Shown here: positions 47,432 through 52,651 of the stretch, piece by piece | Layout: every line of letters begins with the position of its first letter | How positions within the stretch are numbered: the first letter of the stretch is position 1 | From: a virus | Lineage: Duplodnaviria; Caudoviricetes | Length of the DNA stretch: 53,232 bases | IMG/VR virus record: IMGVR_UViG_3300044615_001001 | Coordinates: 1 to 53,232 of that record | Reading direction: 5' to 3' (one strand) | Translations under genes and position numbers: made by a program | Notes under the pieces: model-generated | Databases searched by the model: none | Told to the model about the DNA's origin: nothing | What the model saw: the letters and a program-made list of their open reading frames with translations, nothing else

Positions 47432-47815
47432 TCAGATGAACTGAATCTTCAGGTCGACGAGGATGATGTCGCCGTCGGCGGTGCTCGCGGCGCAGGCCAT
47501 GCCGAGAACCATCGAGGGCGAGCCCGTGGTCTTGCGCGCGAACCCGTCCGTGCCCTCGGCGATCAACTCGTCACCGATGACGATGGCGGCGGCGTTGCCG
47601 TCCACGCGCACCGGGTATTCACCGCACTTGGCGATCTGCACCGGATCGCCAGCGGACGCCGAGTGCATCGTCACGCCGTAGATGAGGCCGCCCGCGCCAG
47701 ACGGATAGACCACCTGCGCTGCGTCGGTGTGGAGCGCAACGAGGCGGTTCGCCTCGACTGCGACGTTGGCGATCTTGGTCACTGCGCCGTTGACGGCGCC
47801 GCCCGTGTAGCTCAT
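47432..47815 (-). CDS. Capsid cement/decoration protein (DUF2190-like)
   Basis: YGVT...GDPV...GDEL...DG...GMA..A..ADGDII.V. Confidence 0.75.
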   Translation of the reverse strand: MSYTGGAVNGAVTKIANVAVEANRLVALHTDAAQVVYPSGAGGLIYGVTMHSASAGDPVQIAKCGEYPVRVDGNAAAIVIGDELIAEGTDGFARKTTGSPSMVLGMACAASTADGDIILVDLKIQFI

Positions 47816-47842: not shown

Positions 47843-49363
47843 TCAGCGCGTGGTCTCGAAGAGGTGCGGGTGCTTTGCCTGCGCTCGACGCAGTGCGGTG
47901 GCCCTGACCTCGTTGGGGCCGTACTTCGGGAACTCCCGACGCACGCCCTCCTCCTCGGCGGCGCGAGCCTCCGAGACGGTCTGCGGAACGCTCGCGTCCG
48001 CGCGCGCGTGACGCGAGAACACATCGCCAGTCGGCACGGTGGACGAGCGGAGCGCGTTGACGATCATCCGCTCACGGACGGCCGTGTCCTGGATTGCCAG
48101 CGTGTCGGCGACGAGCTGCTCGAGCTGCTCGCCGCTCAACGTGGCCTTGGCCTCGACGGCGCGGCGCTGGATGGCCTCGCGCGTGTCGCGCTTGGCGACC
48201 TCGGCGCGCAGACTGGCCACCTCGGCGCGCAGCGCGGGGAGAGCCGTGAGCGCGGCGCGGGCCGCAGTCGCGTCCTGCTGCGACATCGCCGCAGCGTCCG
48301 CGCCAGCATCGGCCGCGGGAGCGCCCTGGCCGAGCGCGCCCTTGAACGCCGCGAGCGACGCCGTGAAGAGGTCGAGCAGCTCACTCGGCGACGCCTCGGG
48401 CTTGCCGAAGAGATCCTGCATGCCGCCGACGACGCTCGACGCGAACGCCTCGAGCGCGGCCTGGTCCTCGAGACCGGGCACCGCCCGCCTGACGGGCGCG
48501 TCGGCTGGAGTCTTCTGCTCGGGCGGAGTCGTGGCGGACATGGCTTCCGCGGGCGGCGGCGCAGCCGGATTGCCGGCCTGCTCCAGAGCCTTCTCGGTCT
48601 TCGCCGCGCTCTTGATCGCCGCGAGCGCGTCCATCACGGGAGACGCGTAGGACTCGGCGCTCATCTCGTCCTCGACGCTCACGCCGAGCGTGGCTGCGAT
48701 CTTGGCGAGCAGGTCGAGAGCAGGGCCGCGAGCGTGCTTCTTGTCGGACATCGTGAGCCTCATCGATCGGAAGTGGATGCCCGCAGTCGCGCGGACGGAG
48801 TTGTTGGGTGCCAGTCCCTCGACAGCCGGAACGTTGGTCAGCGCGTGCTGGAGGAGTCGGCCGTCAGACGAGAAGCCGATCGACCCGTAGGCGAGGCGAC
48901 CAGAGTCGATGTCGCGCGCCACGTCGGGCGAGGTCTCGGCGTAGACGTAGAGATGCCAGCGGCCGGCGCGGTCCTGCACCTCGACGCCCGTGTGCACGTA
49001 GCCGTCAGAGCGCGTCTCGGTCGCGCTCAGCTGCGAGTGCGCGGGTGACGTGCCGCCATCCATCGGCGCAGGGCTGCCCGCGTTGAGGCGCGCAGCCATC
49101 GTCGCGATGAGGTCGCGAGTGACCTGCGAGCCATCGGGCGCGGGCGCGCTCTCCTCGGCCGTCGCATCAAGCCAGCGCCACTGACCGTTCTCGCGGCCCG
49201 ACTCGTCGCGCAGGATGCCGCGCTTCGGGCGGTAGTCGTTGTCGCTCAGCAGCGAGTCGAGCGCGGCGCGAAGCGTGGGATACGCCTCGCCAGCGTCGGC
49301 GTCGCGAAGGCGCACCTCTGCTCCGCCCTTGGTCTCGACGACGACGAGCGGGAGAGTGGGCAT
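47843..49363 (-). CDS. Mu-like prohead protease/scaffold
   Basis: YGSIGF...HALTNVPAVEGL followed by an Ala-rich helical scaffold region. Confidence 0.8.
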   Translation of the reverse strand: MPTLPLVVVETKGGAEVRLRDADAGEAYPTLRAALDSLLSDNDYRPKRGILRDESGRENGQWRWLDATAEESAPAPDGSQVTRDLIATMAARLNAGSPAPMDGGTSPAHSQLSATETRSDGYVHTGVEVQDRAGRWHLYVYAETSPDVARDIDSGRLAYGSIGFSSDGRLLQHALTNVPAVEGLAPNNSVRATAGIHFRSMRLTMSDKKHARGPALDLLAKIAATLGVSVEDEMSAESYASPVMDALAAIKSAAKTEKALEQAGNPAAPPPAEAMSATTPPEQKTPADAPVRRAVPGLEDQAALEAFASSVVGGMQDLFGKPEASPSELLDLFTASLAAFKGALGQGAPAADAGADAAAMSQQDATAARAALTALPALRAEVASLRAEVAKRDTREAIQRRAVEAKATLSGEQLEQLVADTLAIQDTAVRERMIVNALRSSTVPTGDVFSRHARADASVPQTVSEARAAEEEGVRREFPKYGPNEVRATALRRAQAKHPHLFETTR

Positions 49364-49502
49364 GTGCACCTCAAGCGATTGCGGAGACGGGAATTGCACC
49401 CGTGCGTGGCCGGCTTATGAGGCCGGTGCGTTGCTACTTCGCCACTCCGCGATAGGCCGCCGAGATTACGGATGCGCGAGCGCAGAGCCGTCGGCGGGCT
49501 TG

Positions 49503-51176
49503 TCAGTCAGCGAGCGGGCCGGGAGCGGACTCCCAGCCAGCATCCGGCGTCACGCCAGCGATGCGGCCCTCGGTGAGCATGTAGCCGCGCGCCTCGAACT
49601 GCCTCGCGCTGATCGTGGTCAGCGAGCAACGACAGTTGCTCGTGATGATTCCGTTCGCCCCTATCCAGCTGAAAGGCGACTGGAGGTCGAACACATGTCC
49701 AGAGAACGAATGGCGCTTGACGCTGACTACCTTGTCCGTGCCTACGAGGCCGGAGCCTCTGAGAAGAAGCTCGCTGACGAACTTGGCGTCTCGCGCAGTG
49801 CCATCAGGCGCAGACTGGTCGCGCGCAACGTGAAGCCGCGAGGCCGCTCCGAAGCGGAGCTGCTGAAGTGGTCCGCCATCAAGCGAGACAGAGCCCTCGT
49901 CGAGCGCCAGTGCGGCAGAGCGTGGAATGCCGCGAGGGGTCGAGTCCACACGCTTGAGGAGCGCGTCGCCAGAGCTGCCAGCGGCGGACGCCTCATCGGC
50001 AAGCACGAGGACACAATCGCCGGTCTGCTCGACGCCGCTGGCTGTGCCGTGGAGCGCCAGTTTGCCTGGGGCCCCTACAACATCGATCTGGCCGCGCATG
50101 AAGCGCGCGTCGCCATCGAAGTCGTTGGGACTCCACCCGTCCACGCTGGCCGAGATAGAGTCCGCGAACGCACCGAATACCTGCTCAATGGCGGCTGGTG
50201 CGTGCTCTTTGTCTACGTTGGTCCACTGTGGGGTCGCCGCACCGTTGAGATCGACGGTGCGTTCGTAACAAACGAGATCGTCTCCCTCGTGGAGAGAGCC
50301 CGCCGCAACGAACCCGTTCACGGTTGCTATCGGGTGATTCGGGGTGACGGGGAGCCGACGGCCATGCTCCGTAAGTACCTCAACAATCTCCCCGTCGTAC
50401 CAAGCGCGGTAGGCGCCGTCGAAGGTGCCCTCAACGACAACGCCTGACGGGAAGCATCGGAAGCCGAGCGGGGGCGCGTAGTACGCGGCCTCGTCGGTGC
50501 CCTGCCGGAACACGCGGCCGTGAAGCGCGCGGTGCATCGGCCGGACGGCCTCGTCGCCAGCGGTCACGTAGCGAAGGAAGGGGCGCAGCGCGGCGACGTC
50601 GGGATCGTTGACGGCCTGCCATCGGCCAGCGCCGTACGACGTCGCGACGTTCGTTCGCACGACGGTCTCGAGGTAGTGCGGACTCGCGGGCGCGATGCCC
50701 ATCGCTCGCACCTCGTCACGCTCCGCAGCGCGGATCGCCTCGTACACCTCGTCGGTGGTGAGGTCTTGCTCGAGAAGCCGCGCGATGCTTGTGCGTGCCA
50801 CTTCGCGCAGACGCTCTGTCGCGAGACGCCGCGCCACGAAGCCACCTTCACGGTAGCGGTCACGCAGCGCGTCGAACTCCTCTTCGGAGATCAGCCGCTT
50901 CGCGCGGAAGAACGCAACCGCGTCGTCGAACGGCATCGCCAAGAACGGCGACTCACGGCGCGAGGTGACGGCGCGTGCTGCGCTGTCGCTGTCCTCTGCG
51001 AGCTCGACCTCACGCACCATCAACTGGCCGCCGAGCGCCGCTTGAAACGACGTGCGGTAGAGCAGGCCCGCGAGCCTGTCGTCGGTCTGGAGCTGGTCGG
51101 CCCAGCGGGCCACCACCTCGTCGATGTCACTCGGACCACGCAGCGAGCGCGCGTGCGCCGCGAGCAGGTCGAGCAT
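49503..51176 (-). CDS. MuF (gpF/gp7-like) minor head protein interrupted by an intein; 5' end may come from a portal frameshift at 51323
   Basis: LETVVRTNVATSYGAGRW, D..VRPMH..LHG, PPLGFR|intein|CRC. Confidence 0.88.
   Translation of the reverse strand: MLDLLAAHARSLRGPSDIDEVVARWADQLQTDDRLAGLLYRTSFQAALGGQLMVREVELAEDSDSAARAVTSRRESPFLAMPFDDAVAFFRAKRLISEEEFDALRDRYREGGFVARRLATERLREVARTSIARLLEQDLTTDEVYEAIRAAERDEVRAMGIAPASPHYLETVVRTNVATSYGAGRWQAVNDPDVAALRPFLRYVTAGDEAVRPMHRALHGRVFRQGTDEAAYYAPPLGFRCFPSGVVVEGTFDGAYRAWYDGEIVEVLTEHGRRLPVTPNHPIATVNGFVAAGSLHEGDDLVCYERTVDLNGAATPQWTNVDKEHAPAAIEQVFGAFADSISASVDGWSPNDFDGDARFMRGQIDVVGAPGKLALHGTASGVEQTGDCVLVLADEASAAGSSGDALLKRVDSTPRGIPRSAALALDEGSVSLDGGPLQQLRFGAASRLHVARDQSAPDGTARDAKFVSELLLRGSGLVGTDKVVSVKRHSFSGHVFDLQSPFSWIGANGIITSNCRCSLTTISARQFEARGYMLTEGRIAGVTPDAGWESAPGPLAD
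49635..50456 (-). mobile_element. Intein (274 aa) in MuF
   Basis: Cys1 (CFPSG), block B TPNHP, block F HVFDL, terminal IITSN followed by extein Cys; removal restores PPLGFRCRC. Confidence 0.88.
49695..50447 (+). CDS. HTH + DUF559/Vsr-like PD-(D/E)xK endonuclease encoded antisense inside the intein
   Basis: GGAGGT RBS 7 nt before the ATG; YEAGASEKKLADELGVSRSAIRRRL (HTH); QFAWGPYNIDLA...VAIEV.G...H...R..YL..GGWCVL. Confidence 0.78.
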   Translation: MSRERMALDADYLVRAYEAGASEKKLADELGVSRSAIRRRLVARNVKPRGRSEAELLKWSAIKRDRALVERQCGRAWNAARGRVHTLEERVARAASGGRLIGKHEDTIAGLLDAAGCAVERQFAWGPYNIDLAAHEARVAIEVVGTPPVHAGRDRVRERTEYLLNGGWCVLFVYVGPLWGRRTVEIDGAFVTNEIVSLVERARRNEPVHGCYRVIRGDGEPTAMLRKYLNNLPVVPSAVGAVEGALNDNA

Positions 51177-51217
51177 CGAGCGGCCGAGAGACGCGCTCTC
51201 GAGGAGCGCCTCAGCGG

Positions 51218-52651
51218 CTAGTGCGCCCGGTCGTCCGACGACTGCCTGAGCAGTCGCGCGAGCGGATGCGTCGAGGTCTGCGACGTCGCCCCACTCGGCG
51301 TCATCGCGGCCCTCGGAAAAGGGACCTCCGCAGACGCACCCCCCGGCGCGCTTGTGGAGGCTGGGAGGGAAAGAGGCGACCCGCTGTACGCGGGCGGAAG
51401 CTGTGGCGCGGCGAACGCGTCGCCGCCGTCGATCGCGTCGTAGCCGTTCGACGTGCGGAGCTCGTTCTTCGTGCAGAGACCGGCCTGGTACTCCGCGACG
51501 CTCCACGGGCGCTGCGCCTGCACTGCCGTCTCGATGACTGGCACGACGGCGCCGGGGCGATTGAAACGCACGAGCGGCGCGAGCCACTGATCGCAGATCG
51601 TCTCGTCGAGCTCGGTGAGGTCGGCCGCGAGGATGTCGCCGCGCACCTGCGCTTGCGCCTGGCTGCCGTACGTCTGCGCGTCCTTGACCTCGATGCTGAG
51701 GTTGCCGCCGAGTAGCGAGACCGCGTACTCCGTGTTGCAGTAGTCCGCGAACAGCTTGTGCAGTTCGGGGTAGAGCGAGACGGGGATCTCGTTGATCTCG
51801 ACGCCCGTGCGGAACGCCGCGCGCCACGTCGAGGACAACTGCCCAAGCTGGTCAACCACCTCGTCAAGCATCGTCGTGGACGTGCTCGGGTCGTTGACCA
51901 CGCCGTACAGCTGCGGCTGGCCGTACCGCTCGATCATCTCGAGCCACCAGCGCAGCCCGAACCGCTTCGCGAGCGCGAGCGCGAGGAGCGGACGCAGCGC
52001 GCCGCGCTTCTGGAGACGTAGATGCACGCCGCCCGTTGGGCTGTGCACGATGAACTTGTGCGGCCACGAGGACAGCGGCTTGCCGTGGCACTCCGCGCCA
52101 GGCTCGTACACGCACAACTCGCCGTACTCATCGACGGAGAGGCGCGTGGGATCGATGGGGCGCGGACGCGAGACGACCCACCCGCGCGAATCGAGCTGCC
52201 AGTCGTGCTCGAGGACGCCGACGCCGCGGAGGATGCCCTGCGCAAGCTCGGCGCGACGACGCGCGAAGCCAGGCGTCTCGTAGAGGATCGTCGAGACCGA
52301 CTGCGCCGTTGCGAGCGCGTCGCGGTCCTGCTCGTAGCCGACCGGTGGGCGCACTGCCCAGCGCCTCGACGTGATCGCGTGAATGCGCGCAGCGGACACG
52401 CCACGAAGGCGCGAGTCACGCACGAGCGCGCCCTCGTAGATGGCCTGTAGCGGCGAGATCGTGCCGACGTCAGCGGAGCGCAGTGCGCTCACGAGCTGCT
52501 GGCCAGCGTTGACCTCGTACTCCATCGGATCGCTGACCTGCCGCGACGTGCGAGGCACGCCGTACACGCGACCGACGGGAGCGCCGCCGCTGAGCGTCAG
52601 CGGGGCGGCTGCCGCGCGCTTGCTCCACGGGAGCCAGTCGGTCCACGCCAT
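51218..52651 (-). CDS. Portal protein (DUF935, Mu gp29-like)
   Basis: RDSRL....AR, KFIVH, WWLEMIERYGQP, YCNTE....LLGGNL, ETICDQWLAPLV.FN. Confidence 0.9.
   Translation of the reverse strand: MAWTDWLPWSKRAAAAPLTLSGGAPVGRVYGVPRTSRQVSDPMEYEVNAGQQLVSALRSADVGTISPLQAIYEGALVRDSRLRGVSAARIHAITSRRWAVRPPVGYEQDRDALATAQSVSTILYETPGFARRRAELAQGILRGVGVLEHDWQLDSRGWVVSRPRPIDPTRLSVDEYGELCVYEPGAECHGKPLSSWPHKFIVHSPTGGVHLRLQKRGALRPLLALALAKRFGLRWWLEMIERYGQPQLYGVVNDPSTSTTMLDEVVDQLGQLSSTWRAAFRTGVEINEIPVSLYPELHKLFADYCNTEYAVSLLGGNLSIEVKDAQTYGSQAQAQVRGDILAADLTELDETICDQWLAPLVRFNRPGAVVPVIETAVQAQRPWSVAEYQAGLCTKNELRTSNGYDAIDGGDAFAAPQLPPAYSGSPLSLPASTSAPGGASAEVPFPRAAMTPSGATSQTSTHPLARLLRQSSDDRAH

Follow-up and report, generated by a model that had tools for sequence, protein, structure and literature searches.

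We analysed a 53,232-nt stretch of tailed-phage DNA (Duplodnaviria; Caudoviricetes), IMG/VR record IMGVR_UViG_3300044615_001001, positions 1 to 53,232, the whole of which is called here the window. We focused on the junction between two minus-strand reading frames, those of the portal protein and of a MuF-type protein, where a programmed -1 ribosomal frameshift had been proposed in an initial annotation made from the window alone. The portal gene is of the Mu type (Table 1): its product matches the Pfam family Portal_Mu (PF06074, DUF935) at residues 70-379 with E = 1.7e-43 and 149.7 bits (cut-off 23.9), positions 2-304 of the 336 in the model being aligned, and one relative with a solved structure is 8rka_A (E = 5.7e-10). 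The MuF frame is open from 51827 to 49503 and carries the Phage_Mu_F domain (PF04233; 42.1 bits, cut-off 29.6).

Near its 3' end the portal gene reads GTC CCT TTT CCG (minus strand, 51325..51314; codons 443-446), and the codons CCT (444) and TTT (445) complete an in-phase heptamer C_CCT_TTT of the general form X_XXY_YYZ. The -1 frame at this heptamer (CCC TTT TCC...) is the frame of MuF. Both observations agree with the initial annotation, as does the coding capacity of the MuF frame ahead of its first ATG, considered below. The entire portal open reading frame (ORF; 478 codons) contains only two in-phase heptamers of this form, G_GGG_GGT (51344) and C_CCT_TTT (51323), both at the 3' end and at most 21 nt apart, and CCCTTT occurs three times on the two strands of the window. 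A shift at C_CCT_TTT would lead to a predicted trans-frame product of 1049 aa, or 775 aa once the intein is removed, with the junction ...AEVPF|SEGRDD....

Table 1. Features of the portal-MuF junction, listed in the direction of translation (positions are those of the window).
Feature	Position	Strand	Remarks
Portal gene, zero frame	52651..51218	-	477 aa, Mu-type; ATG 52651 to TAG 51220..51218; product of non-shifting ribosomes
G-rich Shine-Dalgarno-like element CGGGGGGTG	51337..51345	-	candidate upstream stimulator; 13 nt 5' of the heptamer, overlaps G_GGG_GGT
Slippery heptamer C_CCT_TTT	51323..51317	-	proposed tandem -1 slippage site; in-phase X_XXY_YYZ
Trans-frame continuation	49503..51323	-	-1 frame from the heptamer to TGA 49505..49503; 604 aa beyond portal residues 1-445
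Overlap region	51218..51316	-	zero frame, 32-aa tail rich in S/T/P/R; -1 frame, acidic linker followed by conserved sequence
Stem-loop	51272..51315	-	possible downstream stimulator; minimum-energy fold; identical in L001 and L002
-1-frame segment, residues 34-105 after the shift	51009..51224	-	homology to the final ~70 aa of Mu-type portals that have a gene of their own
First MuF-frame ATG	51174..51176	-	usual gene-caller start; no Shine-Dalgarno, not conserved
MuF domain, N-extein part	50457..50714	-	Phage_Mu_F PF04233, E = 1.7e-10, residues 372-458 of P0002
Intein-like insert	49635..50456	-	274 aa, Cys 1 to Asn 274, then Cys +1; just before the MuF CRC motif
MuF C-extein	49506..49634	-	CRCSL... 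to the end

Loci comparable to this junction were collected from viral, genome and metagenome contigs, with the portal and an alignment of MuF homologues (A2, comprising 16 of 42 homologues) as queries. In the 23 sequences surveyed, CCCTTTN was sought from -450 to +250 nt around the start of the MuF match, and exactly one occurrence was found in 18 of them. In all 18 cases the heptamer was in phase with the upstream open frame and MuF was in the -1 frame; the upstream frames were 437-574 aa long, except for the one in L010 (67 aa), which is cut by the contig end. Four other sequences (L005, L007, L015, L016) begin at the contig edge and have no upstream part, and one, L020, is an in-frame fusion. 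When duplicates and near-identical copies were collapsed, nine lineages were retained: the window's group, L004, L006, L008, L009, L011, L017, L019 and L022. Their portals range from 58% to 25% identity to that of the window, L008 and L009 being undetectable by tblastn, and the upstream ORFs of the divergent L008, L009, L011 and L019 match Portal_Mu with E from 1e-49 to 1.8e-57. The layout with CCCTTTN in phase and MuF at -1 is found in all nine lineages, the last base of the heptamer being T in four, C in three and A in two. Thus the heptamer, whose conservation in related phages had been named as a check on the proposed shift, is kept and in phase throughout. Among cultured phages, blastn with the junction gave no match, and tblastn yielded only distant Mu-like phages, all below 60% identity.

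The codons at the site are rare ones. In the portal and MuF genes of the nine lineages, with the site itself excluded, CCT accounts for 28 of 348 Pro codons (8%), and at the site it is the Pro codon in every lineage (9/9). In the same genes TTT accounts for 20 of 200 Phe codons (10%), compared with four of the seven Phe-type heptamers, and TTA, seen elsewhere once among 532 Leu codons (0.2%), is used in both Leu-type heptamers. The chance of observing CCT in nine lineages out of nine is about 1e-10 at face value; the lineages have common ancestry, but at these distances synonymous sites are saturated. These counts indicate that selection acts on the nucleotides of the heptamer, beyond the need of the protein for Pro-Phe.

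Searches with the 289 -1-frame residues between the heptamer and the intein produced 42 homologues, all with PF04233 and most of them intein-less. Their called N-termini start at many different columns of A2, and several reach upstream of the window Met at 51176; there they align with the -1 frame of the window (LLDSASLGRSW/LLESASLGRSM; ARTTAIEAVGRPGSIA/ARATAQAVVGRPGALA), and the column of this Met is Trp in most homologues that extend to it. The conserved protein sequence of the MuF frame begins at the heptamer and is kept down to 32% identity, in agreement with the earlier statement that the frame looks protein-like ahead of the ATG. The initial annotation was also right in seeing no evident Shine-Dalgarno (SD) sequence at ATG 51176: the strongest anti-SD duplex that its 22 upstream nt allow has -1.9 kcal/mol, compared with a local median of -3.0 and with -9.3 at the portal ATG. 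This ATG, used as the start by gene callers in the 283-aa homologues, is the first ATG, GTG or TTG of the MuF frame after GTG 51506, and no CTG or ATH codon lies between CTG 51476 and it. Across the lineages the first start codon past the heptamer is at codon +30 to +108, and no start is conserved. L017 and L008 are free of starts for 108 and 97 codons past the heptamer, respectively, the complete start-free run of L017 being 147 codons with conserved sequence inside it. In six of the nine lineages there is no ATG, GTG or TTG between the last upstream stop of the -1 frame and the heptamer, and in L006 this stop is only 16 codons before the heptamer.

In the region of overlap the two frames encode peptides of different character. 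In the zero frame the tails comprise 16-49 aa, are dominated by Ser, Thr, Pro and Arg, and differ from one lineage to the next; in the -1 frame the peptides are acidic, contain much Ala and have in common the motifs PF(S)E, FADV, (V/I)GRPG(A)L, W and LGGQL.V. The pairwise scores are 25.5 for the zero-frame tails and 28.3 for the -1 peptides, the latter being higher in 23 of 36 pairs, a comparison that discriminates weakly. The G+C content at third codon positions (GC3) was compared in three regions: the 300 nt preceding the heptamer, the overlap, and the 300 nt following the zero-frame stop. It is 0.48-0.58, 0.68-0.94 and 0.76-0.98, respectively, in the -1 frame, and 0.72-0.92, 0.74-0.90 and 0.66-0.81 in the zero frame. 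In none of five proteins did the initial 130-140 residues of the -1 frame match a Pfam family at E up to 10. In the two close relatives L001 and L002 (93% protein identity), five of the six substitutions in the 41-nt gap 51217..51177 fall at third positions of the MuF frame; in the 106-nt overlap, four of seven do so and one of seven falls at a portal third position. The density of substitutions is lowest in the overlap (0.066 per nt, versus 0.105-0.26 in other segments).

Two types of candidate stimulators were considered. SD-like elements are located 9-13 nt before the heptamer in all nine lineages (GGGGGGTG, GGGAGGTG, GGAGGG and similar), and in E. coli dnaX an internal SD sequence acts at such a spacing. 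The duplex of the window element with the anti-SD sequence has -12.6 kcal/mol, and no window of the same size matches it in the 1300 nt scanned upstream, a stretch that takes in the portal ORF. The element is likewise unequalled over the upstream 1300 nt in five of the nine lineages, and in the other four 1-12% of windows are as strong. The second pattern of slippery form, G_GGG_GGT (CCG GGG GGT; 51338..51344, minus strand), coincides with the SD-like element 21 nt 5' of the main heptamer and gives the same -1 frame; it is kept in the window's group and in part in L004 and L019. As a shift site it was rejected, L006, L022 and other lineages having no such pattern. There is also a perfect GGAGG at 51325..51329 (minus strand), 1 nt before the heptamer, which is present in the window's group only and is missing from the other lineages.

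On the downstream side, the stem-loop described in the initial annotation is indeed the minimum-energy fold of the window, but its shape, identical in L001 and L002, is not kept in the other lineages, and the proposed check for a conserved hairpin in related phages turned out negative. The fold has -27.0 kcal/mol for 55 nt, with pairing from 51315 to 51272; its outer stem begins 1 nt past the heptamer, and the inner stem of 6+4 bp 9 nt past it. It is among the most stable 5-7% of neighbouring windows in the same genes, and is unremarkable when compared with shuffled sequences (z = -1.54 for 70 nt and -1.03 for 91 nt). In all nine lineages the folds of the 40 nt past the heptamer exceed the local mean in stability (Fisher combined p = 0.0025), the fraction of local windows that are equally stable ranging from 0.01 to 0.43. 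The upstream SD-like element thus appears to be the more consistent candidate accessory signal of the two.

The sequence that follows the shift is not MuF alone. We compared a profile of the first ~135 -1-frame residues from the nine lineages (A3) with a profile of separately encoded portal C-termini (A4); hhalign reported a probability of 85.6% and E = 5.6e-6, and window -1 residues 34-105 matched the end of the portal. Separate Mu-type portals end in ...ATDYDDLRD.LLAAY......L.DVLARA.FMA.LGGRA, and MuF then starts near ...PLPFDEAI.FF. The tblastn match in Ralstonia phage RS138 runs in the same manner from MuF back over the stop codon into the portal C-terminus, and a profile search of the PDB with A3 returned only designed helical repeats, with E of at least 0.33. 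Because of the match of residues 34-105 to portal C-termini, it is likely that the heptamer lies inside a former portal gene; the unshifted product would then lack the conserved C-terminal segment of the portal, and the shifted product would carry both this segment and MuF. Hence the earlier description of the extension as MuF stands as regards the MuF domain in the -1 frame, but not for the entire added region.

Relatives of MuF were found in 13 of the 401 genomes searched from the phylum of the Nannocystis metagenome-assembled genome (MAG) that is the nearest genome match of the window. We observed single-frame fusions of portal and MuF in L027, L033 and L034, both Pfam domains being confirmed in L027 and L034, and split genes, with MuF in the +1 frame and starting near the portal stop, in L026, L028, L029, L030, L032, L035 and L036. 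The metagenome locus L020 also has one open frame with Portal_Mu and Phage_Mu_F. Its junction APGGAPAAS-PL-SDG is colinear with the predicted APGGASAEV-PF-SEG of the window, and at the DNA level GGAGGTG is followed, after 13 nt, by CCCTCTA, with the slippery run broken and the frames joined; this gives it the look of a former frameshift site in which the gain of a single base has fixed the fusion. Natural in-frame fusions, the other comparison suggested at the outset, are thus present, L020 being colinear with the very junction EVPF|SEG. Between the segment resembling the portal C-terminus and the MuF core, L020 contains ~216 extra residues rich in Glu, Arg and Asp (L020:1353-2000).

In the tree of MuF cores (24 rows; L022 and L035 were dropped, with 32 and 68 residues available), a branch with support 96/99 sets the split genes, three of the fusions and L031 apart from all rows of the frameshift type, and L020 clusters with the latter with moderate support (81/79). 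Among cultured phages, gp012 of Aphanizomenon phage CL131 is one gene annotated as 'portal' with a MuF match inside, whereas portal and MuF are separate genes in Ralstonia phage RS138 and in Clostridium phage Villandry. In RS138 (L023:2001-2135) the two are in the same frame with one TAA and 15 codons between them, and the tblastn match crosses the stop. In L031, which belongs to a more distant myxobacterial prophage (G238), there is an in-phase G_GGA_AAA at L031:1207-1213, a full Portal_Mu ORF that ends 61 nt later, GGGGAGGAG 8 nt before the heptamer, and MuF in the -1 frame, together with a rival start GTG four codons past the heptamer; this may be a second, independent type of frameshift.

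Taken together, the heptamer, its rare codons, the coding character of the -1 frame, the lack of a conserved start and the existence of fusions support in silico the frameshift proposed initially, and we consider it highly probable that a conserved programmed -1 frameshift at C_CCU_UUU fuses portal to MuF in the head module of this Mu-like phage. Several observations weigh in the opposite direction. The evidence for slippage is comparative, and the counts of nine out of nine are not fully independent, since the lineages share ancestry. The G-rich element encodes a Gly-Gly pair kept in eight of the nine portals, and constraints on RNA and on protein are inseparable here. The shapes of the hairpin differ between lineages, with z-scores for 70 nt against shuffles from -1.54 to +1.36, and 55-nt windows are unremarkable. 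ATG 51176 is kept in all four members of the window's own group, in which some independent initiation of MuF at this codon is possible. The zero-frame tail may be under some constraint, because the replacements of CGA by AGG or AGA in the overlap of close relatives preserve the portal-frame Arg. Finally, no in-frame fusion closer than L020 was found among the 8000 scored candidates for longer proteins, which is weak evidence.

If portal and MuF were two ordinary genes, the former ending at TAG 51218 and the latter initiating at ATG 51176, the heptamer would be a by-product of a conserved Pro-Phe pair. The ATG does exist and is retained in the four members of the window's group, it is the start chosen by gene callers for the 283-aa homologues, and in Mu-like phages and prophages that are less closely related the two genes are indeed separate; however, it is devoid of an SD sequence (-1.9 vs -9.3 kcal/mol), its Met is replaced by Trp in most homologues reaching the column, the protein sequence upstream of it is conserved down to 32% identity, and the heptamer is followed by 108 start-free codons in L017 and by 97 in L008. 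The rare CCT is moreover used at the site in every lineage and the rare TTA in both Leu-type heptamers, and we regard this arrangement as very improbable. Less probable still is a change of frame in RNA or DNA, that is, slippage of the polymerase on CCCTTTT or in-frame fusions hidden in the assemblies by a homopolymer error. There are short runs of C and T at the site, and in-frame fused relatives exist, but the runs comprise no more than 3 and 3-4 bases, whereas slippage in transcription takes longer homopolymers to be productive. Moreover, the Z base varies (T, C or A) with the phase of X_XXY_YYZ being kept, the same layout is seen in nine lineages from different assemblies, and contigs from three more DNA runs, none of them flagged as a possible source, span the site and show neither differences nor indels. 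Judging from these contigs and lineages, the arrangement of frames is not an assembly artefact. Contigs from the metatranscriptome run X24 on 51157..51378 have no indels either; none of them spans the heptamer by 31 letters on each side and carry-over of DNA is possible, hence they are uninformative on expression and RNA slippage.

The lowest probability is given to a start of MuF within the portal gene, at a non-canonical or distant codon of the -1 frame, which would make it an ordinary overlapping gene. In favour of such a gene, the -1 frame of the window is open for 176 codons before the heptamer, with GTG codons 183, 264 and 504 nt upstream; but ATG, GTG and TTG are all missing from the interval between the last -1 stop and the heptamer in six of the nine lineages, and in L006 the stop lies just 16 codons upstream. 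Ahead of the heptamer the GC3 of the -1 frame is at its low of 0.48-0.58, and its translation is Arg-rich and not protein-like.

In the preferred reading, a programmed shift at the heptamer, the occurrence and efficiency of slippage, the roles of the SD-like element and the hairpin, and the incorporation of the product into the portal ring are inferred. Ribosomes translating the portal mRNA would reach CCU (Pro444) and UUU (Phe445), where the SD-like element 13 nt upstream, and possibly the downstream hairpin, would hold them, and the Pro and Phe tRNAs would slip together one base back, from CCU to CCC and from UUU to UUU. Non-slipping ribosomes would terminate 32 codons further on, producing the 477-aa portal with its non-conserved tail, and slipping ribosomes would add 604 codons encoding the acidic linker, the segment resembling the portal C-terminus, and MuF with the 274-aa intein. 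The product of 1049 aa (775 aa when spliced) would join the dodecameric portal ring via its portal part, and MuF would thereby enter the procapsid in a proportion set by the frameshift efficiency. The initial annotation proposed that a minority of portal subunits would carry the extension; the in-frame fused relatives indicate that fusion on every portal subunit is tolerated. A wider proposal, for and against which we see the balance as even, is that MuF lacks an independent start throughout this clade and arises solely by frameshift extension of the portal, the ring consisting of two isoforms (truncated portal, and full-length portal with MuF, the latter here also requiring removal of an intein) in a ratio set by a dnaX-like signal, and that the junction has switched between split, frameshift and fused states.

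The intein-like insert in the MuF frame matches Pfam Intein_splicing with E = 6e-4 and 20.1 bits, under the cut-off of 35.8. Intein-less homologues read GFR|CRCS uninterrupted exactly at the site of the insert, and the insert is polymorphic: a 283-aa protein with 96% identity (P0003) is precisely without it, and the 95%-identical frame of the Nannocystis MAG (537 aa) is too short to contain it. The search for longer proteins gave four of 557-609 aa, judged by length to be intein-bearing MuFs, one of which has a Pfam intein match. The earlier claim that the fused product would also need protein splicing therefore holds, as far as the 274-aa insert interrupting GFR|CRCS can indicate.

The next gene downstream (49399..47843, minus strand) has a weak match to the Mu-like prophage I protease/scaffold (E = 1.7e-4, below the cut-off), and it is followed by a gene (47432..47815, minus strand) matching a phage cement protein (E = 1.1e-6). 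The gene content agrees with a head module of the Mu type, in which portal, MuF, protease, decoration and capsid follow one another, and in view of the weak protease/scaffold match a later cleavage of the portal-MuF fusion is possible. Among genomes, the closest match is contig L012 of a Nannocystis sp. MAG, with 95% protein identity, and the segment 51000..51600 is found in many lake-water metagenome runs (among the rows listed, 11 of 24 hold at least half of the sampled words). These matches suggest a myxobacterial host from fresh water, probably of the Nannocystis type.

The programmed frameshifts known in tailed phages affect tail chaperones and some capsid and tail proteins, and the portal is not among them in the literature searched. 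A shift from portal to MuF is not described in the full-text literature searched, outside of which lie subscription journals and supplementary files, and the candidate papers, in the parts available, deal only with tail-chaperone frameshifts. The word 'portal' is absent from 300,000 of the 449,034 characters of the 2016 recoding review PMC5009743, and a C_CCU_UUN heptamer is not mentioned in PMC4066793, which leaves no measured efficiency to cite. The portal forms the unique vertex for entry and exit of DNA. If the proposed shift takes place, it would be a genetic way to fix the number of portal subunits with MuF, a cargo or pilot protein which elsewhere is bound or permanently fused, and the single heptamer would provide an experimental handle on the MuF copy number. 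Gene calls would have to be corrected, as about 50-100 conserved residues of the MuF frame are currently missed, and the short list of bacterial -1 signals would gain one from high-GC bacteria, a C_CCU_UUN heptamer that is well conserved and preceded by an SD-like element.

In E. coli, the dnaX shift yields a shorter product. Its signal comprises A_AAA_AAG, an internal SD sequence upstream and a hairpin downstream, according to PMC5389563 and PMC5600365. The junction studied here resembles it as a -1 site of the bacterial type, with a heptamer suited for tandem slippage, an SD-like element that precedes it by ~10 nt and, in the case of the window, a hairpin directly behind it; it differs in the heptamer, C_CCU_UUN, in that the longer product arises from the shift, and in that the hairpin is not conserved. 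The other parallel is the frameshift of the lambda G/GT type in tail assembly chaperones (Xu, Hendrix and Duda, 2004). In both cases a conserved -1 shift in a morphogenesis operon of tailed phages gives a second, C-terminally extended product from two overlapping ORFs, whereas the genes are the portal and MuF here and the chaperones preceding the tape measure there, and the partner proteins are different too.

The logic is also that of the Gag-Pol type of fusion in RNA viruses and retroviruses, where a cargo becomes attached to a structural protein by frameshifting and is thereby packaged at a fixed ratio (PMC5009743), although the proteins and hosts are unrelated and the stimulators there are of the eukaryotic type. 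In phage SPP1, the MuF-type protein gp7 enters the procapsid through the portal protein gp6, 'in a few number of copies' as PMC6316719 puts it; there the gp6-gp7 link is non-covalent and involves two separate proteins, whereas the link proposed here is covalent. Closest in their architecture are the in-frame fusions, which are described for Microbacterium phage subclusters EA3, EA5 and EA8 and cluster EB in PMC7302621. They share with CL131 gp012, L020, L027, L033 and L034, and with the product predicted here, the same covalent order of portal followed by MuF. The natural fusions, however, involve every subunit and require no recoding, whereas in the window both an unfused and a fused form of the portal are predicted.

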